Positions 2,698-62,329 of a DNA stretch of 64,000 nt are shown piece by piece (positions within the stretch are counted from its first letter, which is position 1; each line of letters starts with the position of its first letter). Location of the stretch: NCBI GenBank assembly GCA_051362555.1, contig CM120640.1, forward strand, positions 27,552,503 to 27,616,502, in the 5' to 3' direction. The notes under the pieces are model-generated. The model did not search any database. It saw only the letters and a program-made list of their open reading frames with translations, and had not been told where the DNA came from. Source of the DNA: Lingula anatina. Its lineage: Eukaryota > Animalia > Brachiopoda. The translations under genes were made by a program, and so were the position numbers.

Positions 2698-3806
2698 TTA
2701 ATAATCTTCCTGTGCTTTACAAGTGGGAATCAATTTCTCCATTCTTGGTTTTACTTTCTCTTTCACTTCTTTCACTCTTTCTAAGTTCATTTTTAGTTTG
2801 TGTTCTTTCTTTTCTAATTCATGGAGTGTTTCTGGAGCAAAAAGAGTTCTTATAACATAATCTATGCCCCTGTTAGTCTCGGGTATACGGGATTTGCACC
2901 TGCCAAATAAATAACTTTCAGATCCTAGTTTAGAAAACCTTGCTGATACCCAGTGACTGCGGTCTATTTGGGTCTTCTGTGACACTTCTTCGTCTTCCTT
3001 GTATACAACTTTTTCAACAACATCCTACAAAAAATAAATAAATAAATAAAATAAAAATAAATAAATAAATAAATAAATAAAAATAATCACTTTAAGTTTA
3101 GTACAGAATGGTCTATGACAATAACTTATGGAGTACTCAACACACTTACAAGCAAATAAGTTGTTCTGTATGAGCCTTTTTTATAACATTTTCAAAATAC
3201 ACAATGCCGATATGACGTTAATCATAACTTGAGTAAACCTTAAGATACTTTGATCAACTGACTTACTGCATAAGTAAGCATGTCTACATTTCTTGTGTAA
3301 GTGGTGCATTTTCTTGTTTCAAGATCCACCTCCGATTCCTCCAGCACAAAACAGGTGTCCTTGCCTCGAGTAGCCCAGTGCACAACCCCACGCAGGAATG
3401 AAGGGATAGATTTTAGTTGGACCTTTTTTATAAGCTTCTTGGAATAGAGTTTACCATTCTTGATTTCCCTGTGAATTACATCTTCAGAAAGTATGTGTGG
3501 GCTAAAAAAAATAATTAAAAAGTTCTACAGAAATAATTACGTGACAAACATAATTTTATGACTTCTTTTCTAATACAATATTCCTACAAACAATAATGTC
3601 ACACATACTGTGTCTAAACTTAAAAAAAAATCACTGCCAGCAGTTCTAGTTAGACCTAAGCCTCTCAGTCTAGCTATCTAGAGCTTTATCGATTAAGCTG
3701 TACTCTAGAAGTCTTACCTATAAGGATTTGGATACTTTTTCAATACTGCGGTCACAACCTGGTCCCACCGAAAGGAAAATGTTCCAAAGTCTTTTCCGAA
3801 CTTCAT
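2698..3806 (-). CDS. PRELID1: PRELI-domain mitochondrial intermembrane lipid-transfer protein, PRELID1/Ups1-like (~216 aa)
   Basis: Exons 3806-3718, 3501-3267 and 3024-2698 splice in frame: MKFGKDFGTFSFRWDQVVTAVLKKYPNPYSPHILSEDVIHREIKNGKLYSKKLI...CFVLEESEVDLETRKCTTYTRNV...VVEKVVY. WDQV..YPNPYS..H.L.ED is the PRELI signature. A likely non-coding first exon ends at 5739 (GTAAGT donor). Confidence 0.88.
3031..3085. repeat. (AAAT)n microsatellite
   Basis: Direct reading; it forms the polypyrimidine tract of the last PRELID1 intron on the minus strand. Confidence 0.9.
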
Positions 3807-12034: not shown

Positions 12035-35273
<23,239 letters not shown>

Positions 35274-44368: not shown

Positions 44369-47152
44369 ATGTTCAGTCTGTATGTGGTGTTAGCAGCTGG
44401 GTTAGTGACGGTGGCCATTGGTCAGGCTAACCCAGACAGGTGGAGCCCTAGTGACTACCCAAACCCAAGGATGCCCAACAGTGGCTCATACAGCTGTCTA
44501 CGGAAACAAAAGAAGTCCTATATCTGTGATCCAAATACTCTTATTTCATTTGAGGATGGTAAATAATGTTTTTATCACTTGTAAAATCAGATGTTATTTG
44601 CTATGATATCATTTGCTCAATTCAATTGATAAATTATTTAGATACCTTATACTGTTCTCATTTTATCACACAAGGCATGCTTTTTTAAAATTGAATAGAT
44701 TGAATGGTGCTGCAGTTTATTGAAAGAAAAACAGCTGAGAAAAACATATAATGATGAAGTAATCATTATCACATTATATGCATGTGTTACAGGGTCATTT
44801 TTTCCAAAACTATACTAGTAATGATGTTTGTTCATGAATTCCATCATAGTCCATGGCTACATCTGCAACTTCTGTTTAAATATGCACATATACAGTAAAC
44901 TTATTTCTTATAGCCAACATGTTGGACAAAGACTTGGAGCGGATAGCAAACAATAGCCGCTGCCTGTGTTCTGCCAGTGAGTGCAATAGGAGACAGCAGA
45001 ATAAGGAACCCAGGGGAACAAGGATGGCTGTTGCTTTGATGCAGGAAATGAAAAGAGAAGTAGAGTGAGTAAAGTACTTTTTTTTCTTCTTTCATAACTT
45101 TTTAAGCAATTTTTTTAAACATTTTGGTCAAAAAATATAAGTTGTTATTATAAGCACATTTTTCACATGAGCAGAGAAAAGTCAAATTTAACATTCACAA
45201 AGTTTCAGATCCTATGTTATTGGTAATGTACGGACATTTGAAAATGAAGAACCTGTATTATATGGGGCCTGAAAAATTTTTATATGAAATCCAAGGACAT
45301 AAAAATTTATGCATTTATGCTAAAGAAACTTATGGTTTGTCACCTACTTCCAGTGGCGAGGATTCTGATGAAAAACGTATTGGGGATGCACAGTCATTTG
45401 CTCACCGACTTTATCCCAACTGGAACTTAGGAGGAGAGTGCCACGATGTTGTACTGTTAATTTATTCTAAGCATGAGAATGTAGTAAGTACACATACTTT
45501 GTTTATCAGTTGATTTATTTTTCAAAATGTTAAATTTAGATGGTTGAGTGAATATTATAGAAATGAACATATCAACTCAGAAGAATGGAAAACTTTTTGT
45601 TATAGAATCTTAGTTAGAATGTTATAAATGTTAACAACATTAAGTTGGGTGTTATGCTCATTTTCACTTACTAGTACTATAATCCAGCCTCACTTCTTTA
45701 ATAATTAATTCCTTTGAGTTTAATTTGTGTTTATTCATCTAGATCAAAGTGTAAAACAATGTTAAAAAGGCAATCTAAGATAAAGCTATTTGAGGCAAGT
45801 TTCTCAGAAAAATTAGGTAGCATAAAGTATAGAAAGCACTGACATTTATGGGTTGGTTTCAGTTGTATGTTGCCACTGGTCCAGCAGCTAGTCAAGTTGT
45901 CAGCAATATGGATCTGAACAGAATCTTGGCTGACTCACGACAATATTTCTCCAGTGGCAATGATGAAAACAGCAGAAGAAAACTTAAAGAGGGACTTCAA
46001 AGACTGATAAATGATTTCAAGTAAGCATACATTGGCTTTTTATATGAAACAACATATAAATGTTCGCTTTTTTATCTATTGCATTTTTCTTTTTGTTTTT
46101 ATTCAAAGGAATCAACATTCAAATGCTGTTGCATGTTTAGATAAAGAGGTTGCCTTTTTTGGGGGGTGAGGCGCTTTGCTTGTCAGCATTGTTTCACTTG
46201 CCAACACTGGTAAGATTTCTTTTCAGACATGTTTTTGATGAAAAATTAAATATAGCAAGAAAACCACCTTAAGACACACTTCGTTATTTTATCTTATGCT
46301 GGGTTGCTTAGGTCTTGTTTAATCACCCTTACAGAAAAGTTCCATGTTAATTTCAGCTGACTACAGCAGCAAATGCATTAAGGCACAATTTTGTTGTGCA
46401 GCACTGCCCCTTCTTTCCATTAAATATATAATTTTTTTTTTATCCCACAGCAGAAATAAGGTCATCATTTGAGAGATTTTACTTGCAAATTAATATAAAT
46501 AATGAAAAGGAGATGGCTGTCAAAGCATTGTTTTCCTTCGCATTGCAGGACTGCTTTCATTCGTGGCCAGTATATTCCACGCAAATGGCATGGGGGGAGA
46601 TCAGAGTACAGCCCAGGGTCAGCTGGCCAGTCGGGCAGAAGATCGTCTGCTTTCATGAATACTTTCAGTGGATTGTTAACAATGACAGCTCTTTTCATTT
46701 CCTTCCTTGTGATTTACTAAATTTGTTGCAAGTGAATACAAATTCAAGCGCCAGCTGGTCTATAGCTTTTACTGCTCTGCCAAAGTTTACGGGTCTATCG
46801 GTGGTTCCAAGGCATGGCCCTATTACCGTACCAAAGATACCACAAAAGTCTGTTGACGGTGCTACAGTTTATACCAAAGCAACCCAGCATTGAAAAAAAT
46901 GTTACAAATGCTCTTTTTCAAAATCTGAGAGACATTAAAATAATTCTAGTCTTTGTATTTAATGAGAATTATGTAATTTAAAGTAAATTATATGTTTTTG
47001 CCTTTGACTCTTGCAGAGAGCATTTAACCGGACAAAAAACAAATATCGAATACAGAATTGAAGCTCAGAAATCCAGTGGAAAGAGAAACACAGTACAGCC
47101 AATAATCTTGATGACTCTTGCCATAAGCTTCTTACTGCAGATATTCAAGTAA
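44369..47152 (+). CDS. MOLO-1/TPM-like secreted protein with signal peptide and C-terminal GPI-signal-like tail
   Basis: Exons 44369-44558, 44914-45064, 45354-45483 and 45863-46020, then 46549-46720 or 47017-47152. Signal peptide MFSLYVVLAAGLVTVAIG. W...YPNP...C....SYICDP..L, MAVALM and FA..L...W.LG..C...VLL are typical of the MOLO1 family. Confidence 0.8.
46549..46720 (+). CDS. Alternative terminal exon A of the MOLO1-like gene
   Basis: Acceptor TTTTCCTTCGCATTGCAG, phase 2. Encodes TAFIRGQ...SGRRSSAFMNTFSGLLTMTALFISFLVIY*. Confidence 0.65.
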
Positions 47153-47972: not shown

Positions 47973-50100
47973 TCAAACTGCAGTATCTCTTTCTGATTTC
48001 TTTCTGTTAAGTACAGGAAAAGAAGTGCTTGTAGACGGCCGCGATACAAGTAAACTGTCCAATGCCGTTTCCTCCTCGACATTTCTTTCAGTGTGTGTAA
48101 TTCCATGTAGAACTGCAAGAGTAGGCAAGCTTTTGTACTGAAGTCCCGTATCACCTTCATTGGTAATTTCATCACGACAAGTGGCCACAATTTCTGTCAA
48201 TTAGAAAAAAAGAATTGCTGTGATCTTTTTTTATGCAAAAAAAGGCTATAAAAATATCAAAGCCATTATTTGGACAAAACAAACAGCCACATTCAAAATA
48301 GCAAAGGCCCGAAAGACTACCATATCACAAAGCACCTATACCAGGAGTACAAAGAAAATTTTGAAGGTAATATACTTCAGATCTAAAAGTAAGGACATTG
48401 AAACATATTCCAGGTAGTGTACTACAGTCGCAAATAGAAGAGCAGAAAGGTTAAATAAAAAATCAATACCTACAATAATCACATCACAGAAACTCATGCA
48501 GAGAAGGTCTCTGTAATGTTTTTAATCTTCATGTTGAGTTACAATATTTTAAATAGATGATCTTCAAATGTAAAAAAATCGCACGTTACAAATTTTAACT
48601 TACCCATTTCCAATGTACATAGATCAGCTGCCCTCAAGTTCTCTAAAGACAGTGGGGAATTTAGGAGATGTCTGTTCATCATGAAAAGCTTACTTGCAAT
48701 ATCTCTCCCAATCACATTCTCAAATATGGCACTGAGGAATGGCTCCTTTGATAGAGCATTTTTGATCCTGCTCTTGGACCAGCGAATGTAGCGACAGTCC
48801 TCCAAAGCCACTATAGTCACCTGAATAATAGGTATTCATATCTTCATCTACATAAGTTAGAAAATTTGTTTTCCATTACTTTTGAGATGATTAATTTGAA
48901 AGGGGTTTAATGAATTTCATTCTTGCAATAATGGTACATGTTTCCCCTTTTTCATTGTACATACTTCAACCAAATAAATACTTTTATCACTACTTACCGG
49001 TATCTACCAGTATCAGTTTCTAAATGAGCTACTGCATGCTGTAATATTAATACTGTGTAGATATATGGTTAAAATTATAAGTAACTGAGACTATGTTATT
49101 CTCCAACTAGCACAAACAGAGCACAACAAAATTTAGTCAAGTTCATACACTAGTAGAAAGTTTTTCACCCTGTGTACACATAATGAAATATAAGTAAGAG
49201 GAACATAATAGTGAATGAATTTTCATGCAACCAAGTACCTTAAAGCAATCATGCTCAGTGAAAGACACATACTCAGGAGAGTCAAGGAACTGAAATTCAC
49301 TGATTTCATGAGCAAACTTGCCTGTTATTGATACTGACATTCTGAAACAAGAAAGTGAGGAAGTATAGAGAAAAGGCATTTACTTAAGTTAACAGTGCTG
49401 ATTTTATTGCCTTCTGAATCTGGGTGGCATACCAGTATGTAATTATACAATACTATAAATAAACAATTACAATTAGTACCCAGTTTGAAAAAAAAAAGAT
49501 TTTTCTCAAATTTAAATGCCATCAAAAATGCACTTGCCTCCCAGAGATGAGGAGAGACAATCCACTAGTTTTAGTTGACCCTTCTGTGGCAAATAGTTCC
49601 CCTTTATTTACACTGAATATGCCATCATGGAGATCCACTGCTTTTTTGAAAAGATGCCTTGGAACTTTCAGGGGTTTAAATAACTGCTCATACATCAATT
49701 CAATCTCTGGTGGAAAAGAAAGTGGTCTAAGGTGATAGATAATGAGCACTGCTTGTACAAAGTTGATTATAGCTAAGAAAAAGTTCCATAGGAAAGTGTC
49801 AAAAGCACACAGCACGTCCCATCCCCAAACTGAAAAAAATATTGACGCTATGCAAAGAACAGTCCTCAAGAACAACAAGCCATATATTCCATTTGGCGCC
49901 AAGTAGGAAAGTAGAAGGCAAACGTTGGCCATTTGAAAGTACACATGATTTGGTGGCAGCCATTCACAACCCATCCAAGAAGTCGTGGAGATATTGTCAA
50001 GTAGAGATTCATTGGATACTGCCCCCATTATGACATAGCTTGATGGATCTGTTGTGTTTTCAAAGCTTATCTTCATTGTGGCGAGATTCTGCGTGGGCAT
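47973..50100 (-). CDS. BVES: Popeye domain-containing cAMP effector (BVES/POPDC family)
   Basis: Exons 50100-49538, 49341-49239, 48820-48604 and 48193-47973. N-glycosylated N-terminus, three TM helices (HVYFQMAN..LLSYLAP; WGW..CAFDTFLWN), Popeye domain with FLDSPE and FKVT motifs, and DIASKLF. Confidence 0.92.
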
Positions 50101-50830
50101 CTACAGGCTACAATTCAATAAAAGGCAGCATAATAAAAATGAGTGGTGTATTCAATTTCAATTAAAAACAAACTAAACGCTAAAATACTTGTGCTGAAAA
50201 AAGTATTGGGTAAAAAGAACAGTAGTGTCTAACTTAATTTTCAAAATAATGATCACTGCTATATATAAGTCATATTATTAAAATTAACTCATGCATTAGA
50301 TTCTATTGTTACTGTTATCATAGAAGTAGAGAACCGGTAACTAAATATAACCACGTAGTTAAAATGTCATTGGTTCACGATATTACATTAAAATGTTTTA
50401 CCCCCTGTTAGCTTTGTGCCAGTAGATTCGGATACGCAACGTTTAACAAAAGGCTTCTAATTCCTGGCTATAATGACATTTTCTTCTTGTCCGAAATAGC
50501 TCTGTTCAGTTTTTGTCGTGATAATAAAATTTTGCTGATTAGTTCTTCAAACTAAAGCATACTTTTAAACTCAAGGTAGCTGGTGACAAAGTCAATTGAT
50601 AAATAAGATTCTTAACATAAAAATAATTATTTTAAAGTGTACGTAATACAATTTCAAATATAGCTATAAACTTTGTAATTGGACATTTAATTATTACTGT
50701 CCGTTTTTGCCACGGTGAACTAATCGAAAAGATGTGCGTGAAGTGTGTTTGTTGAGATTGGGGGAACTTGGCGCGTGTGGGAATCAAAAACATTCCGTTT
50801 ACAATTGTGCTCACCGTGCGTTGGAGGTAT

Positions 50831-51885
50831 TTCAATTGTACCATGGCCCATAGGAGCCTACGCGTGCGTCTTTTAGACGCCCCTTTACATGCGAAAACGA
50901 CAAGGCCTATGCCGAGTTCGTCTTTTACTACAGAGCTTTGAGAGCCGAAAATGACATGGCTGTGTCTCTTTCGCCACTTACTGAACTCCACAGATGCGAG
51001 ATTGACACGACCCATGTCGCGTTCGTCTCTCAAATGACACTGTTATAAAACATGAAATAGGCATAACGTGTGATTTTCGCAGCTGAATAAGTAGACCCTT
51101 ATAAACGAAGTTGACGTAACTTGAGAGTCATGTCGCTTTCAACTCTTACAAACCTCCAACAAAATCTATCTCCACACAGACGCGCGCGACATGTACTATT
51201 GGACATGGGTCAGTTGAAACCCTATTAACCTAAAGGGCTCATGTTACTTTCAGCCAACTCTTATATGTCAAATCCAATTAATTTGAAACAGTGCTGTGCT
51301 GTCCCAAAACATTTTTTTCATTTGAATCCCATCATAATTTAGTGCTATCTAGATAACAGTGTGGCTAATTGCTTGTAATAATTATATGGCCTCATATTTT
51401 TATTTTCAAGGATTCAAATAAAAAGGGTTTTAAGACGGTCCTTCTGTTTCAAATTAATTGGCTGAAAGTAACATGAGCCATTTAGGTTAATGTCGCTTTC
51501 AACTGACCCATATCCAATAGTACATGTCGCGCGCGTCTGTGTGGAGATAGATTTTGTTGGAGGTTTGTAAAAGTTGAAAGCGACATGACTCTAAGGTCAC
51601 GTCAACTTCGTTTATAAGGGTCTACTTATTCAGCTGCGAAAATCACACGTAATGCCTATTTCATGTTTTATAACAGTGTCTTTTGAGAGACAAACGCGAC
51701 ATGGGTCGTGTCAATCTCGCATCTCTGGAGTTCAGTAAGTGGCGAAACAGACACAGCCATGCCATTTTCGGCTCTCAAAGCTCTGTAGTAAAAGACGAAC
51801 TCGGCATAGGCCTTGTCGTTTTCGCATGTAAAGGGGCGTCTAAAAGATGCACGCGTAGGCTCCTATGGGCCATGGTACAATTGAA
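50831..51885. repeat. Long inverted duplication (arms ~50831-51291 and ~51444-51885, ~150-bp spacer)
   Basis: The arms are highly similar reverse complements; the ORF track shows near-identical translations at 50632-51033(-) and 51683-51889(+). No flanking TSD is visible. Confidence 0.95.
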
Positions 51886-53184
51886 TTAATTTTGGTACAT
51901 TTCGCTTATTTGTTTTTTTTTTTTTTTTTTTTTTTTTTTTTGATGAAATTTATTAAAAAGAAGGATTTAAGTCACTAACGTAAATGCTTTTCACCAGTTA
52001 TAAAATTGATATGCATGCTTTACCTCTCAACTCACATCTGATTTATTCTTATTTCTGCACCTCGATCTTTAGGTGTGTTTATAATATTTTTACATCATCA
52101 AGAAAACCAAGTCAAAACACATCAAAGCCAAACAAACAACGATTTGAAGTCGTTAAAAGAACCCTAGCCAGAATCCGAATAGGCCTAACGATTATCTTGG
52201 GCGGTTTTTTTTTTTTACTCTGAAAGTTCTTTGATCCGAACATCTAGTGAAACGAGGCCTTTTAATTCCGAAAAGCTTTCTCCTAGAAGGCCATTTGCTC
52301 TTAATTTTTATCGCTGATAGAAACCTTATCTTTGAATAAGCAGCTACATATACGCCAGTAGCCATGTTTGGGTGTGACATATGAATAAGGCGTGGTCCTT
52401 CACTCCTAAATATCACCCTTGTTATAGACCTATAGAAAATAATGCAAAAGAGTTATGCACGCTTCATACTGACAAAAATGAACGAAAAAGATATGTATCA
52501 GTGGGAATCGTCTAAATGCTATTAAGGATATGTAAACGGTTTTTATATTCTCGATTTAGCATCAAACGGTCATGAACAGGCAAAAGTTTTCTTATCAAAG
52601 TGAATTCAGGTCATGTTCAGGCGACAGTTATTCCATTTTTTCTTATAAGTTGGTTAATACGAAAGCGAGCCTTAATGTAATTTTTATAAGCCCTTATTAA
52701 TCTAATCCTTTTTGCGGAATTGTCAAAATCATTATAACTTTAAAGTGGCATCCGTTCTCCCTTATATTTTATGGGATAATTTCGATAAGAACCAATTATT
52801 ATAGAGACACTGGAACTGGGACATTAACCTTGTTTTGCAATGTCAGCTAGTGAAATAGGACACTACTCGACATTTGTTATGCATGGTGGCCGTTAATATC
52901 CAATATTGTAAGTAAACACTTTTTCTCTTTATTCCTGTCGAGGATTCATAGCGTGCGCGGTGCCTCGTTTGTTAAAACGTCCATTGGGCAGTCTTCGTTG
53001 TCCTTTGACTCCCAACCGTGACGGAGACAAGCTAAGAGGGAAAACGTAGTGCATACAGTCACATGACTGATATATATTTATGAGTGAATACATATATATG
53101 TGTATTGCGCCTCTAGTGTACCGTCTGAAGTGGCACCGGGGACATAAGTACAATAATTGAAGCAAACTTAAGAAATTTACAGCG

Positions 53185-56100
53185 ATGGAGACGACCATTC
53201 CTGCACCCCACGAAGTTTACTTTGGCCCCCCTTACGGAAGCCACGAGCAGTGGCAAAACAGAGCATACAACATTGTCGAGGAACACTTAGGAAAGGAAGA
53301 TTTCGAGAGAAGATTAGCCAAACAGTTTCAGGTATTTTGTTTTTTACAAGATTTAGGTTAGGTGAGGTCTGTAACATTTTTACCGCGAATAGTACCGTGA
53401 ATTGTACTCTTGAAGCACCTGTGCTTTATTTAAGAAATATCATATATCGTATGCACTGAGGTTTGACAGGTTCATGCTGGCGGTTGATGCCATAAGTATA
53501 TGCCTTCCTCCGTGCTGAGATTATTATTTGTCATTATTCTTGTTGTCAAGCTTAACACGTGTAGTTTTTTTAAATGTAATTATGTGTTTGGCTTTGCACA
53601 CTTTTGTCGCGAGGCAGTTGGGTACGTCGTATAGTTGTCTTTTGTCACAGTGGATATGTTCACTGCAATAAGAACAGGTTTTGCTTGATGTAGGCCTACC
53701 TTTGCAACATCAATGCTTCATTTACTAGTCGACCCAGGCGACATTCAGTGCACGCAGGCATTCGATACACATATACAAATTTAACAAAAAAAATCCAGCC
53801 AAGTATAAAGAACCATTTCGAGCTTTTCATAAGATTATAAGATACACTATTACAAATAGATAACAAGATGCCGAGGTCACTGCCTCCATAGAATTCTTTC
53901 CTCTGACATTTCAAGAATTATTAGAACGTGTCCTCTAGGTCAGCTAAGCAAATTTCACCAGCTTCTGTTTGTTCATCTGCCTTGTAACCTTGACAGTCAT
54001 GGCGAGAAGATCATATATCGCATTTGCAGCAATTTCCCTTTAAACAATGATGCATAATGAACATAAAGAGATGTATTATAGTATTGAAAATATCAATTTA
54101 CTGCATATCATAAGGCCGTCTATATGCCTATTATGGAAAATCGAGTGCTGTAAATAAGAGGAGTATATAGTCTGATCAAATACAAATCGGAAATTAAACC
54201 TAAATCCACATTGCAGTAAGCAGGGCCCGCATTAGCTTTATTTGAAGTCTCGTGAATATTTCACGATGACATCAGACGATAGGCCAAAAGTTTACGTTCT
54301 ATCATGGCCATGCTGAAAATGATCAAATTTATGAACAAGAAATGTAACGTAAATGACAGATGTAGGCCCATTAGAAAGTTTTTTTTTTTTTTTAAATTAT
54401 GAAGGCCTTTACAAAGCACGTTGAAGGTCAGTGCATGTACCATGCATGCAAGTAATTTACTTTGTAATTACTTTATAAAGTAATTTGCAAAATGTACCTG
54501 CCTTTTCACTTGAAATATGTTTTAAACCCCATCTAAAACTTGCCCCCTGTGCCATAAGGTTCTGTTGTACCTATTCACTTTTTGTTTTTAATATTAACAG
54601 AAAACAAAGCACAAGTTTTCTTCTGTTTATATATTACAATATGAATAATATATATATAAATAAAATTGTAGGACGGTTACAATACTCCGACTTGGTTGAG
54701 CGGTTTGAAGTTGTCATGGAAGTCTACCAAGATCAGGAACCTTTTTGGTCTAGATTCCATAAAGGGGAACGGATCATTCACCTATCATTCTAGCGTTGGA
54801 GGAGCGGGGTTCGCTGTTTTATCCGAGGTAAAAATCTGTGTGTTATGGAACTAAAACTCATTCTTTCCAAGGAATATCGAAAACAATTTAGCAACGTTAT
54901 TTAAATTATTTCTAATGAAAAAACTAGTTTACATTTTTCTTTTTTTTTCCTTTCTACTACACAAAGAATCTCAATATACCAGAAAACGATTTCTTCAAAC
55001 CGGGAAAAGTGTTCCCCATACGCATGCGCCATGCAAATCTGTTCACAGACGACGATGCAAGTTGCGACTTTCGCTTGGCAAGTTTGAAGTTTGCTGATGA
55101 GGACGGCGGAGGGCCTCTTGATTTGATTTTCTCAACAGGTCGAATGCCTTTATTCTACAACTTGGCCGAATTAGAAAAGCTGGACGGAGCTCTAGGAAAA
55201 CAAGAGGACGGGTTTAGGAAATGGTTGTTTGAGCGTCCCATCAAGTGAGTTGATGCTAGATATCACTATACTTATCTTTTTTTCTGACGCTTTTTGGCGG
55301 TTTTTCATCACTTCGATATTATATCGTTTAGGGTAGATATATCGCCTTTCTGCTATATAGATTATCACAGAGTTATAAAAACATTTTGCTACTTCTATGA
55401 TATTTATATTTTTTGAAATAATGCGGATCATTTTGCTCGTAAATTAGCATTTTTTATTTCACTTGATTTTCCTTGTGTGTTTGTGTGTGTGTGTGTGTGT
55501 GTGTCAGACTTTGTTTCAAGTGCCCATACCGTACACTTCTCCTGTCATTTTTTTTTTCATGTGCGTTATATACTTTCGTGTACTCCGTATCTTTCGCATG
55601 CAGTTATTGGGCAGCTGTGGACGGTATGAGACGCGCACCGACTTCATATTCATCCCAGGTTTATTACAACCACTTCACCTATCACATGACGTTTTCTGAC
55701 GAAAGCACCGAATTGGTTCGGTTTCGACTGGTTCCCGCCGCGGATGTTTCAGAAAGTGGGCTTCTTAACGAACAGCAGCAAAAGCAAGCTTGGTAAGGTC
55801 GAATATTTCGATATTTAATCTATCGGCTTCACTCTTGTTAAAAATGTGAAATGTTATTATTTCAAACCATGTCCACCTACCTAAAACACCATAGGCTACA
55901 ATGACCCGTTCATCATTTCACAAATTTGAATTTATCTTGAAATAAGAACATGGAATTATAATAAAAGACTAATGATTTTGTTGGTTGATGTATCTTCTAA
56001 TTTGACGTTATCAAAATCATATTTTCAGCAAGCGTGATAAAAAAATCTTTAACCCCGAAGCCAAATCGATGATTTTAAAACCACTTTTCACCATTTCGAA

Positions 56101-59100
56101 ACAAATAAAAATTGCTTTTCATAATTCCCATGATTCATTTTATTGAACATTGTATATTCAGGGTCAGAGAAAGACATTCAGATATTGGTAATCGTGAGAG
56201 CTACCTGAGTGAGGAATACGAGTCTCAGGTTGAGAAGCACGGTGCTGTGAGGTGGATTCTACAGGTAGTGGTCTAAACTTTTAATTCACAAACTAAGGAG
56301 AAGGCCCACAACTTGACATTCTGAAACATTCTGTATTATATGCAAAGATTTCGGCTCAGCTGATAATTACCTTGTACGTGCAACTGAAAGAAAATGAATG
56401 TGGCAAAATTTGCATAATGAAGCTGTTCAGTAGTTGGCTGTTCAGTTATAATATTGCTCAAGTAAAGTGATAACTGCATGTGATCTGCCTTTCAATTAAG
56501 AAGATTTAAGGTATACACTTATCTACTTGTAAGCAATGATTTAAGCTGGCCGTCATTCAGTCACCCACAACTCTCAATATGTGTACAGGTACAGCTACAT
56601 GATGTGACCGAGCTTTCCGGCTACAACCCATGTGAGCTATGGGACCCCGTAACCCATCCATGGCGCAATGTGGCGGACGTCTTTGTAACAGGAATTCTCC
56701 CTGCTCAATTCACCGACAAGATGGACTTCAACATAGACAACAGGCCCGATATCCTCTCATTTCCTGAGGCGAAATCTGTTTTTGATTTCAAGTCCGCCAA
56801 CAAAGCACTTCAAATTATGTATGAATGTCACCAGACACGGATGCAGCGTCGACAAGTTCTTCAAGACCCTGAGGAGAAAGTTTCCTCTTACGTTATCACG
56901 TTGGAGTCGGGACAACAGAGCCGTTCCGGTACCCTTTCGTCAGTACAGGTAACACTGCAAGGTACGTATGGTATAAAGACACCCTTTGCGCCATTGTAAA
57001 TATATCATCTCAGGCATATTGCAGGGCCGAGTCGAATCGGTACGCCAAGTTTTTTAAAGCGGTGCCCAGCCCGTAGTTGCTTACAAAAAGCTTCCCTTTC
57101 CAGGTAAAACCAGACGCACAGGCCGACACACACTCAGCAACGTTTACCTGACGTCAGGACTTCATGTGCACCTTGTCAAAGACCGGTCGATAGGCAACTT
57201 GATTGCAATACAAGTTGACATCCGTCATCGGTTGTCCAGTGATTGGTACCTCAACCGACTTTTAGTGACTTGCTTGGAAAGGAACGAAACTTACGTTTTT
57301 CCTTGCTTTGCTTGGTTCACTGACGATAACAAAACCATGGTTCTAAGACCAGATCCGGCAGGTAAGGTATATCTTTTAAGAATACACTAATATCACGTAG
57401 AAAGATACACACACACACACACTGACAGTATACAAGTACTCTTCATCAAGATGCGATAAAGAACCATGTGGCCCCTGAACCATTGGCAACCATTGAATTT
57501 CATTTTGGGTTAATATTGGTGTTTTCATGAAATTTTCTCTTTTTTAGTGTCTCTGCCTCAGATGGAACAATACACCAAGCTTGCGGTAGTGCGCAAGTGG
57601 GAGCTTCAGAAGAAGAAAGAGCAGTATCGCTGGGCAGATTCAAAGACCGTGGTCAAAACTCAGGTGGGAAATCTAATGTCAATATTGCATGACTTCTAAA
57701 TGTATTAGTTGGAAGAAACATATTTTTTAATTGTTGTTATTATTCTCATGACAACTACGTTACCTTTGCCAGTTTTTTCGTGGGAAAGAAGGAAGAAGCT
57801 GCAAAGAATACGAATGTGTTCTTTGCGGTAAAGAAAAGCGACATTTATCCTATTGGAAATGGTGGAGGGATATATGAATGACATAAAAAGTTTACTTTAA
57901 TCAAGTTTATGTCGCTCAGGTTGAAGGGCACAATGAAGACAACCTCCCAGGGCGGATCGCTGTGAAAGAAATGAAACATCTACCTAGAGATGCCCAAATA
58001 CCTGAGGAACGCATAAAACACTTCTGGCACAACCTGAACGCTGGGTTCCTCAACCTCCAACTGGGGCGCCTGGCATCTCTGATTAGTGAATGGAAGCACA
58101 CTGACGACTTTAAAACCATGGTGAATAGGCTTTTGGAGAAGACCGATACCATGGACTATGTTATGGAGCATTGGACTGAAGATAAAGAATTTGGGCGGCA
58201 GATGTTGGATGGAACGTATCCAACCCTCATTCGTCGGTTGGCAAGTCTTCCACCTAACTTCGTTGTGCCAGATGACGCTCTTGTTGGTGTACTTGATAGG
58301 GGACGCACTTTGGGAGAAGAAATCCAGGTGAAATGTTAATTGGGTCACGATTGTACTTATCACATACACAGTTGATGTTTCGTTTAAGAAAGAAAGTTAA
58401 AACTGAGATGTCAGTATGTTTACAAAATACTAAAACTCAAAGCAATACTCGTTTCTATAAGTTTTCAAACTTACACAATTTATATTTCATCCAGGAAGGG
58501 ACTATCTTCATGGTGGAGTATCCAGACCTGCAAACAGTGCTGCGTTATCCAGACCGTTACGTAGCAGAAGCCACCTGCCTCCTGTACGTACGCTCTGACG
58601 GAGCTTTGGTTCCAATCGCAATACGTCTTATACAGTCCTCCGACAGCCATGAGCAGATTTGGACCCCTAACGACAGCCCGATGGACTGGCTGTGTGCCAA
58701 AATTTGGGTGAAGTGCGCCCACTACCAGTACCATCAAATTGTTGGCAGGATGATGTGCAGGTTAATGTTGGAACCAATTGCGGTGGCACTGAACCGTTGC
58801 TTGTCTGTGGCTCACCCCGTGTATCAGCTACTGCAGTCCCATCTTAAGACCGCCATTGGAATCAATGTGATGGATCGCCAGGTCTTTGGAGCGGGGTACA
58901 ATGAATTTCTAGCAATTGCTGCCGGGGGACACATCGCCCTGTTGAAGAAAACCTACAAGAAATTCACCTTCAAGATTTTGAACCTGCCGCTGGATCTGGA
59001 GACCCGTGGTGTTGACGACCCAGCAGCTCTACCCAATTATCACTACCGCGACGATGCCTTGGCCCTCTGGCAGGTAATCCGGCAGTTTGTAGAAAAGATG

Positions 59101-59951
59101 ATCTCACTTTTCTACCACTGCGACTCAGACGTCGCTGGGGATGAAGAAATCCAAGCTTGGATCGACGAATGCCATTCTAAGGGATTCCTCAACTGGGAAG
59201 AGAACATCGACCACGGGTTTCCAGACAAGATCAGTAGCTTGGAAGGGTTATCTGAGATACTGACCAGTGTGATCTTTACGGCAACTGGTCAGTACGCAGC
59301 TCTCAATTATTCACAGTATGATTACAATACGTTTGCTCCCAATATGCCTTCCACAATGAACAGACCACCACCTAAAGAAAAGGGTGTCGTCACCATGAAG
59401 TCGATCGTAGAAATGTTGCCAACCAGACGACAGACCGCGTTCTCCATTGCTGTTGCGTACGCGATGTCTCGGCACGAAGGGGGCGAAGTGAGTGTCAATC
59501 GTCTACTGGTACCAATTCGTGTGATCGTTTATAATAAAACGAAAGTAGCTGTTTTTAACGGTGTAGATATTGCATGACGATGGCTAATCATAAATTGATA
59601 AGACTCAAAATTACGTTTTATTAGCTCAATGTTGACGAAAACATAAATGAAGATTCCTTCACGTCCAGACTTATTACCTTTTACACGTAATTGGCCTTAT
59701 TCCCCATATTTTTAAACAACAGTTACAATTTTTGTGTTTATGATTGTTTTTTTTTCTTCTTAAAATACTAGGTGCTGCTTGGGAATTATCCAGAGTACAG
59801 TTTCACCGAGCCTGGGCCGAGAAAGGCAGTGGACAATTTCCAGGGGGATTTGAAGAAGTTATCCAGTGCTATTCATGTACGCAACAGAAAACTTGCGGTT
59901 CCGTATCGCACTCTCTTGCCTGAGAAAATCCCCCATTTCATTGCCATATGA
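53185..59951 (+). CDS. Allene oxide synthase-lipoxygenase fusion homologue (catalase-like AOS + PLAT + LOX, 1066 aa) with catalytic residues substituted
   Basis: 11 exons: 53185-53331, 54672-54827, 54967-55244, 55604-55792, 56162-56264, 56589-56961, 57104-57361, 57548-57663, 57920-58327, 58495-59487 and 59772-59951 (3201 nt, no stops). AOS motifs: FPIRMRHANL, SLKFAD..GPLD, MRRAP and LWD..THPW. PLAT motifs: DWYL and FPCFAW. LOX motifs: W.EDKEFGRQ.L.G, PIAI.L, WLCAK.WV, LPNYHYRDDAL, and C-terminal IAI. Confidence 0.93.
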
Positions 59952-62329
59952 TGAGTCTAAGGCCGTTTTGTATAACTTCATACTCGGAGCCCCGAGGTTT
60001 CATGAGGTTTAAGAGGCGGTTCTCCTCCTTATTCTTCCCAACGTCACTTTAATGACCTAGCGCACGTGATGTGTGTGACAGTTCAGAATGAGCAAGATAA
60101 ATACACAGATTCCAACGCTCCAACTACACTTTATCAAGTTTAGATGCCTAGTACTGGAACTTTTTTAACCTACGGTGATACGAATGATATTCAAGGGTTT
60201 CAAAAACCCACGTCAGCAAGTTTATACAACTTTGCTCAATATATTTTGTATATTTATATGGCGAAGGGTTTGTAAAAGTAGCAGCAGTAGCGGGGAAGGT
60301 GCACATGCTTTTAGCTTTTAGGGGACTGGTGATGGTTTTTTTCATCCTTTTAAGTCTGTTCGAGGGAGACCTACTTTTCCTTTTAAATAGAGAAAATACC
60401 AGCCCCTGCCAAAATAATGTCTACTAAGTGCGCCACAATAAAAAAATCCAATGTGTAAAAAAGCAATTATTTACTGGTCAATAGGGTGATGGTTTAAGTA
60501 GCGAGTAATTGTTAAATAATTCTTGAAAATGTGTTTGTACCAAACTGTATCCTACCGAAGACATTTCAAACTTACTGTATTAAGTTTTGCTTTTTATTTG
60601 CTTCTACAAAACATTATACAGCATTATGCTGCAGCAATAAACAAATTGTACAACATGCAGTACGTTCTCTATAACCACATGAACTATGCTAACTTCACTT
60701 TTTTTTATACAAAATTGAAACTGAGACAGATATTGACGATGAAATAACTGTTGCTTTGAACAATAAGTGTATCATTAATATAAAGTGATATACGTCTTCC
60801 AGTGCCTTTCTCCACATTCTACATTAAGCTACCTATTCAACATGGCACATTTAAGGTAAAGCTCACAGAGCTTGCCATTATGTAAATGCTTTTTATAACT
60901 TCATATGTACAACTACACAAGTGAACTACAATATCAGCAACAAGTGAGCTTTTTATATTATTTTACAATGTATGTATTATTCATCAGATGATTAAAAACA
61001 AGATGATTCAAATCTTTTAACTCTTGTGTTATTCTATAACAATTGCTGCAAATTTGTCAGTGTGAAAATTCACCCAAAGAGATGTTTATATTGCTTTTAA
61101 ATGTTCTTTATTCTCCACCACTGACTTTCACGTGCATTTAAATTATCTATATACAATATTGTCAGAAAATACTCATATATTTAAAAAAATGAAAATCTGT
61201 GAACACATTCTTCTACAAAATTATGAAGCTTGTTAATATACTCCCTGCGAATCAAATAATCATGTTACACAAACACCAGAAATAACTTACATTCAATGCA
61301 AGCATAATTATTTGGTAAATTCACCTCTTAATTACAGTTTCATTCTGAAAAGATGACATTTACAGCTTGAAAAGGTGTGATAAAAACCTAGCAAGATCAG
61401 AGAATTGCTTTAACCTATTAATGTTACATGCACATTTACGAACAGACAATAAAAAATTATATCTTGTTTATGTTTTTTTTAACACTTATTCATCATATGT
61501 ATTAGTCTTAAGGCTGTAAACATGGTGAAGAACTTTTCAGCAAATCAAGTGTTTAAAAATGTGCTGACATTTAAGGCAAATCTAGATTAGGATTACAGAA
61601 GTACAGGCCACTTTTCATTTTTACCACCAAAGAATTTTAGTAAACCATATGTAATGATCACAATTTTTATGAGCATGTTATGACAGCACAGGTCAGCAAA
61701 TGCATACTCACCGAAATAATTGTTTCTACTGCTCATCTTATTTAAAATTATACCTGACAAACCTGAAGTATCTAAATTAGCTTTTTCTTGTGTCTTAAGT
61801 TCCAGTGTTATGCTGGTCTGTGTTGTTGTTTTTACCATATAAGAGCATGCCTGTAGTATTATATGTTTCAAAACTTCTATTCATACCTGAGAAAAGCACA
61901 TGGCTGCCATCAAGCACCATTCAGCAATTTAAAATGATAGAAGTCTGAATCTTAGACCTCAGTTCTTTACAGTTCAAAAATTACAAAGCTGATCCTAAGA
62001 GTTTACAATTCAATTCATCCTGTCTTAAAACAATTTACAAACCTTGTAAACATAATTTTCATGGAGATCAATGCCCATATCCACATTTGCAGTGCCATGG
62101 GCACCTTATCAAAGCAATAACAAAGTGTATATAATATATATATTCATACTAAAAATTATAATAAACAATAACAAAAATTTAACCTTATGTATCATCTTTC
62201 TTCCTTCTTGTATATTGAACCATAATAAATATATAATCAGGCATTAAGTGAGGCAGATGTTCTATCTACAAAATTCCATGCAATAGAACACCCAATTCAC
62301 AAGAATAAGTTTGAAATAAATATGTAAAT

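Follow-up and report, generated by a model that had tools for sequence, protein, structure and literature searches.

Animal fusions of allene oxide synthase (AOS) and lipoxygenase (LOX) are represented by AOS-8R-LOX of the coral Plexaura homomalla (structures 3dy5, 1u5u, 3fg1 and 4qwt), a chain of 1066 residues in the order AOS-PLAT-LOX. In coral AOS, R64, R102 and R360 are heme contacts, T66, H67 and N137 are the distal residues and Y353 is the proximal ligand (PMC5617202); T66, H67, R349 and Y353 are named as the catalytic residues of AOS, and H757, H762, H943, N947 and I1066 as the iron ligands of LOX (PMC5793058). Three fixed histidines are common to all LOX according to a 2026 review (PMC13059375). 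In stony corals the AOS domain alone is known to degenerate, the LOX ligands being retained in every fusion (PMC5793058). The present analysis concerns a stretch of 64,000 nucleotides of Lingula anatina DNA (the window; assembly GCA_051362555.1, contig CM120640.1, positions 27,552,503 to 27,616,502 of the forward strand), which contains an AOS-LOX fusion gene with the same domain order and the same protein length as in the coral. Key active-site residues of both halves are replaced in a gene that is intact, spliced and maintained. The sequence and the predicted fold suggest that its product is probably a double pseudoenzyme that, without catalysis, binds fatty acids or oxylipins or regulates signalling by lipid peroxides.

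Residues 23-1065 of the Lingula protein align to coral AOS-8R-LOX (PDB 3dy5) in phmmer with an E value of 2e-183, and both folds of the model overlay those of the coral at about 2 A. In coral numbering, Thr66, Arg102, Tyr353, Asn947 and Ile1066 are common to the two fusions, whereas His67, Arg64, Asn137, Arg349, Lys107, His757, His762, His943, Gly800 and Arg555 of the coral are replaced in Lingula. Compared with the coral, the Lingula protein also lacks one residue in the iron helix and another close to Gly800, and its PLAT loop is four residues shorter.

The LOX half has lost all three iron histidines. Exon 10 (58495..59487), which encodes the LOX core, has Arg761 in place of His757 (58747), Arg765 in place of His762 (58759), with one residue deleted between them, and Tyr943 in place of His943 (59293). 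The other two ligands are kept, namely Asn947 (59305) and the C-terminal Ile1066, with which exon 11 (59772..59951) ends before the stop, and the LOX and PLAT folds are present. In a survey of 176 proteins with 174 LOX matches, 170 domains were covered at all three histidine positions; three histidines were found in 156 of them, two in 6 (two of these look misaligned), one in 4 and none in 4, the last group being the Lingula protein, two amphioxus records and an unnamed fragment, P0146. The rest of the domain is well preserved: of 48 columns with a conservation of 85% or more among His-intact homologues, it retains 42. The iron histidines account for three of the six others, with a chance value of 0.0012 that has to be read in the light of the homologues having been picked for these very residues. 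Arg761 and Arg765 are both encoded by AGG, which lies several changes from a His codon, and the loss is for this reason not a fresh one. Errors in the assembly were ruled out at Tyr943 by the RNA reads, in which this codon shows a synonymous variant (among the 40 of 218 differences listed), and at Arg761 and Arg765 by the near-identical records P0001, P0019 and P0020. The Coffa site, Gly800 in the coral (PMC3925239), carries neither Gly nor Ala; Asp803 (58873) is found instead. Leu579 (58034, in exon 9, 57920..58327) stands at the site of Arg182 of 8R-LOX, a substrate-carboxylate residue according to a figure legend in PMC13059375; with a numbering offset of 373 this is Arg555 of the fusion, and the position of Leu579 was counted by hand on the phmmer alignment. 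Since the 3-His-1-carboxylate iron site is gone, the protein would very probably have no lipoxygenase activity. Separately, P0146 and P0225-P0227 (long contigs) show another LOX exon with all three iron histidines replaced, which forms a long branch of its own; P0146 was considered as an orthologue of the Lingula protein, a placement that the tree does not support.

The AOS half was the subject of a first-pass annotation made from the DNA letters only, whose span of 54762..56830 covers exons 2-6 and which missed the loss of the iron histidines. Its description of the AOS motifs holds. The three motifs are where it placed them, and phmmer against 3dy5 agrees with its gapless alignment to the coral. 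The exon 54672..54827 (exon 2, residues 50-101), which it proposed for the distal heme segment, is real, as RNA reads splice in and out of it. In the distal motif (54774..54788), Ser84 corresponds to coral Arg64, Thr86 to Thr66, Tyr87 to the distal His67 and His88 to Thr68, Lys80 upstream being the equivalent of Lys60. The change of the distal His to Tyr at 54783, with a His one residue later, was thus read correctly, and a reference profile, made without the Lingula protein from 10 AOS domains in which the catalytic His and Arg are intact, likewise assigns Tyr87 to the His column, free of gaps and at posterior class 9 along the segment. The change of Asn137 to Ser that it noted is found too (Ser157, 55132), in exon 3 (54967..55244), together with Arg122 for Arg102 (kept, 55027), Phe127 (55042) for Lys107, a residue proposed to hold the substrate carboxylate, and Leu170 for Leu150 (kept). 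In the proximal helix, encoded by exon 6 (56589..56961), which also holds the start of PLAT, Leu365 (56808) replaces Arg349 and Tyr369 (56820) retains Tyr353, as had been proposed. The claim that the heme-contacting arginines are lost is correct for R64 only; R102 is kept, and R360 is probably kept as Arg375 (56838), which the profile alignments place in this column with a one-residue gap after the proximal Tyr, whereas a gapless pairwise alignment puts Met376 there.

Not all of these changes carry equal weight. Asn137 to Ser is weak evidence of AOS loss, because N137 is described as not essential in coral AOS (PMC5617202) and because the AOS of Tubulanus, with His, Arg and Tyr intact, has Ser at the same site. 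Overall 53 of 69 conserved AOS columns are kept, and the 16 that are lost include Arg64, His67, Gly70 and Arg349. Among 40 AOS-like rows, 36 are covered at the His column, 26 with the distal His and 10 without it, and the Lingula protein is the only one of these 10 with Tyr at the proximal position, the alignment of the proximal helix being uncertain in many of the unnamed rows. Residual heme binding may therefore persist. No RNA variants were found in codons 84-88, 122, 157, 365, 369 and 375 in reads of three runs of one study that cover these sites. The same three runs differ at 35 of 1035 coding bases and agree at these codons, which rules out an assembly error. On these residues, normal AOS chemistry is likely to be absent. 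It was also observed that metagenomic AOS-LOX fusions of 880-960 residues (P0021-P0025, P0011, P0013 and similar ones) keep the distal His and the proximal Arg and mostly have no Tyr four residues further on, which suggests another proximal ligand or a shifted helix. Two shorter proteins of 830-850 residues, P0026 and P0027, have a C-terminal degenerate AOS-like domain and no LOX match.

The gene that encodes this protein shows no sign of collapse. It comprises 11 exons on the + strand (53185-59951), all introns are GT-AG, and the 1066 codons contain no internal stop. Pfam recognises PLAT PF01477 (392-494) and Lipoxygenase PF00305 (614-1053), and a catalase-like domain, PLAT and LOX are joined in one chain by one chain of splice junctions, as expected of a coral-type fusion. 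Raw RNA reads from 4 runs of 3 studies, mapped to 53000-60300, show every one of the 10 introns spliced, with about 300 reads on the gene in each of three runs and 16 in one; the shallow run X15 covers 2 of the 10 junctions, and the strand bias in run X12 is consistent with a sense transcript. Among the 40 of 218 differences to the RNA runs that were listed, 36 are coding, 24 synonymous and 12 non-synonymous (ratio of non-synonymous to synonymous rates, omega, 0.14-0.21), and none is a coding indel. In the AOS exons, 21 synonymous and 14 non-synonymous variants over 1035 coding bases give an omega of 0.18-0.27 (p at most 1.3e-4), this list coming from the same three runs of one study, with 34 rows and one variant taken from a junction. 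Because these lists share entries and do not separate polymorphism from divergence, they count as one crude line of evidence for purifying selection. The gene is under selective maintenance and is not decaying. The predicted structure agrees with a conserved framework, as AlphaFold2 on an 83-row alignment gives both folds intact with a mean predicted local distance difference test score (pLDDT) of 90.7 and a predicted template modelling score of 0.89. The LOX part matches 8R-LOX (3fg1) with Z 49.7 and a root mean square deviation (rmsd) of 1.8 over 661 residues, and the AOS part, of catalase-type fold, matches coral AOS (1u5u) with Z 46.8 and rmsd 2.0 over 355 residues. Within the folded AOS domain, confidence is lowest at residues 81-90, with a mean pLDDT of 67, whereas the same segment scores 88-90 in an intact-residue homologue modelled from the same rows; for this reason the model does not settle where Tyr87 and His88 lie.

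A LOX without its three iron histidines and an AOS without the distal His and the proximal Arg, in an intact, spliced and maintained gene, lead to the prediction of a double pseudoenzyme. Lacking iron, the LOX half would make no hydroperoxide, and its conversion by an AOS half that has lost His67 and Arg349 would be unlikely. Selection that keeps both folds would then act on a soluble protein with a binding or regulatory part in the signalling of fatty acids or oxylipins. Less firmly, it could be possible that Arg761 and Arg765 fill the iron site and hold the carboxylate of the C-terminal Ile or of a fatty acid in place of the metal, and that the hydrophobic LOX channel stays as a binding pocket. 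The PLAT loop at about 413-416 and its acidic residues serve in the binding of membrane and calcium; in Lingula (exon 7, 57104..57361, PLAT/C2-like domain) the acidic residues of this loop are replaced, and its shorter, less acidic form might weaken calcium-driven membrane binding.

Several points weigh against this reading. A fully heme-free domain would not have to keep Tyr353, Arg102, Thr66, Lys60 and Arg360, yet the first four are present and the last probably is. The sites that anchor the substrate are changed (Lys107 to Phe and, in 8R-LOX numbering, Arg182 to Leu and Gly427 to Asp), and this argues against the usual mode of arachidonate binding. The selection signal comes from differences between close populations, partly polymorphism, at low read depth. 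Orthologues at 45-98% identity were found neither in three homologue searches nor in one representative search, word-based and clustered searches being able to miss them, and none above 45% identity turned up beyond near-identical Lingula records. Finally, an active paralogue as the target of regulation may exist but is hypothetical.

The first-pass annotation had proposed either a heme-free AOS domain or an altered heme site with new chemistry or a sensing role. The loss of normal AOS chemistry is well supported, and neither sequence nor model decides between the two outcomes. The idea of new chemistry is weakened, because no supply of hydroperoxide is to be expected from a fused LOX without iron histidines and because a degenerate AOS is common among animal AOS-LOX proteins (PMC5793058). 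A possible though unlikely alternative is that, next to a dead LOX, the AOS domain has retained heme, bound by Tyr369 and with Tyr87 at or close to the iron (a Tyr/Tyr site), and that it stores heme, senses hydroperoxides or redox state, or slowly catalyses other chemistry on the hydroperoxides of another LOX. The proximal Tyr, retained here alone among the His67-less domains, speaks for it, as do Arg102, Thr66 and Leu150, the probable Arg360, and a distal segment that looks remodelled in view of its pLDDT next to that of the control. Yet the protein has lost Arg349, Arg64 and Gly70, which all 10 reference AOS domains possess, and a single kept Tyr can reflect packing or recent loss. The equivalent of Arg349 in catalase stabilises the tyrosinate. 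Furthermore, milder pocket changes in coral hydroperoxide lyase already raise the heme-free share (PMC5617202). A wider and rather doubtful proposal is that invertebrates have repeatedly turned AOS-LOX into a metal-free receptor or decoy, with the Lingula protein combining an iron-free LOX lipid pocket and a Tyr/Tyr heme in the catalase fold that senses fatty-acid hydroperoxides; such proteins would make up a recurrent and so far undescribed class of pseudoenzymes that sense oxylipins.

If the gene were a duplicate that had lost its function recently and was turning into a pseudogene, this would explain why many functional sites are lost at once along with several one-residue deletions, why no orthologue turned up outside the near-identical Lingula records, and why read depth is modest. 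We regard it as improbable in view of the open frame over 11 exons, the exact splicing, the omega of about 0.14-0.27 and the absence of coding indels among the RNA differences listed; moreover, the AGG codons at two iron-histidine sites indicate that the loss is not fresh, yet the structural core is kept. That His88 takes over from the distal His, as the first-pass annotation had considered, so that the domain would still work as an AOS or hydroperoxide lyase on the product of a separate LOX, is very improbable: His88 adjoins the canonical position in a segment whose low score leaves its place in the model loose, and N137 is reported to be non-essential (PMC5617202), but Tyr87 falls in the His column of pairwise and profile alignments that are gapless here, both an insertion and a deletion would be required for a shift where His to Tyr takes one transition, none of the 26 distal-His rows has a His one position later, and Arg64 and Arg349 are lost as well.

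Comparison with other animals places the double pseudoenzyme in context. Distinct named animal AOS-LOX genes were tallied by eye, with copies from different species counted once and unnamed rows left out, and gave 15 genes: both sites are kept in 3, only AOS is degenerate in 6, only LOX is degenerate or mis-modelled in 1, and both are degenerate in 5, in a sample that is biased towards the query, has the active coral group collapsed and may have its counts inflated by gene-model errors. The five are the Lingula gene, three amphioxus genes and one Nematostella gene. Stony-coral fusions (e.g. Orbicella XP_020618715.1, PMC5793058) and those of mussel and Pocillopora resemble Lingula in having AOS residues changed or missing in a whole fusion. 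In contrast to Lingula, whose LOX is dead too and whose proximal Tyr is kept, they have intact LOX iron ligands and could simply be lipoxygenases. Mammalian eLOX3, a hydroperoxide isomerase, is similar in that a LOX fold lacks ordinary dioxygenase activity (PMC13059375), but eLOX3 uses its iron, whereas the Lingula protein is without iron histidines.

A close parallel is the Branchiostoma XP_035681464.1 group (P0033, P0200, P0197, P0037), in which both domains are degenerate and, as in Lingula, His943 is changed to Tyr and one residue is deleted between iron ligands 1 and 2. Unlike Lingula, to which it is about 35% identical, its AOS keeps His67 and loses Tyr353. The dead motifs of this amphioxus gene, without iron histidines or proximal Tyr, occur in records of B. 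floridae, B. lanceolatum and B. belcheri, two of which are 97% identical, and its recurrence in three Branchiostoma species indicates that doubly dead copies can persist. Nematostella XP_048590066.1 (P0231) is also degenerate in both domains but keeps one iron histidine; it lay outside the topology test. In a tree of 33 fusions (LG+G4, as for all trees, without P0037 and near-duplicates), the Lingula protein groups with nemertean, mussel and unnamed rows (SH-like approximate likelihood ratio test, SH-aLRT, 99), the amphioxus dead copy groups with other amphioxus paralogues (SH-aLRT 100), and a LOX-only tree does not place the Lingula protein. A single ancient dead clade of the Lingula protein and amphioxus P0033 was rejected by the approximately unbiased test (p-AU 0.000125; LG+G4, quick search, with the hypothesis named after the first tree). 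Convergent disarming in Lingula and amphioxus is the likelier account of these sequences.

Pseudoenzymes in general are common. No report of a doubly degenerate AOS-LOX or of a Lingula AOS-LOX was found, the supplementary alignments (e.g. Fig. S1 of PMC5793058, Figs. S1-S5 of PMC13440314), which might contain such sequences, and most subscription papers being outside the search; the accessible text of PMC13440314, PMC7693274 and PMC11999201 holds nothing on a double loss, and literature searches gave no characterisation of the degenerate Branchiostoma or Nematostella copies. Loss of AOS alone being already known, the loss of both active sites in one fusion appears to be new to the literature. 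Databases label the Lingula protein an allene oxide synthase-lipoxygenase, and transcriptomic studies of wounding and stress in invertebrates count such genes as oxylipin enzymes. An iron-free lipoxygenase kept by selection would help to separate the catalytic from the binding or scaffolding roles of the LOX fold, and His to Tyr with a one-residue deletion in both Lingula and amphioxus would be a clear example of convergent disarming. As the proximal Tyr is retained here alone, much could be learned from a simple test of heme binding.

The remaining exons complete the gene. Exon 1 (53185..53331) contains the start codon and the N-terminal AOS helices (residues 1-49), its junction with exon 2 being present in RNA reads; exon 4 (55604..55792) encodes the AOS beta-barrel, exon 5 (56162..56264) a further part of AOS and exon 8 (57548..57663) the start of the LOX catalytic domain, all three from the gene model and RNA junctions. 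In the intron 1 region (53488-54707), sense reads of run X12 and a loose end at 53700 indicate unspliced RNA or an alternative 5' part. The protein differs at 6 residues from P0001 (XP_013388118.1), a Lingula anatina record named allene oxide synthase-lipoxygenase. P0019 (XP_013385825.1), an N-terminally short record on another contig, is 8 residues off and could be a haplotype copy or a recent duplicate. At codons 722, 819 and 927 (58630-58631, 58922 and 59246) the window differs from three database records and from nearly all covering RNA reads, which points to a private allele or an assembly error.

Elsewhere in the window, a Popeye-domain gene (POPDC; PF04831) lies on the - strand at 48539-50100, head to head with the AOS-LOX gene. 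Between the two is an inverted repeat (50828-51257 / 51458-51888) with arms of about 430 bp, 97% complementary, and a 200-nt spacer, which looks like a foldback element or one of the miniature inverted-repeat transposable element type. FYVE_2 and C2 exons with long acidic low-complexity open reading frames at 12425-31899 (- strand) probably belong to one synaptotagmin-like gene. A PRELI-like exon match was found at 3243-3524 within 2698-3524 (- strand), and a weak MOLO1 match, under the curated cut-off, at 45154-45513 (+ strand).

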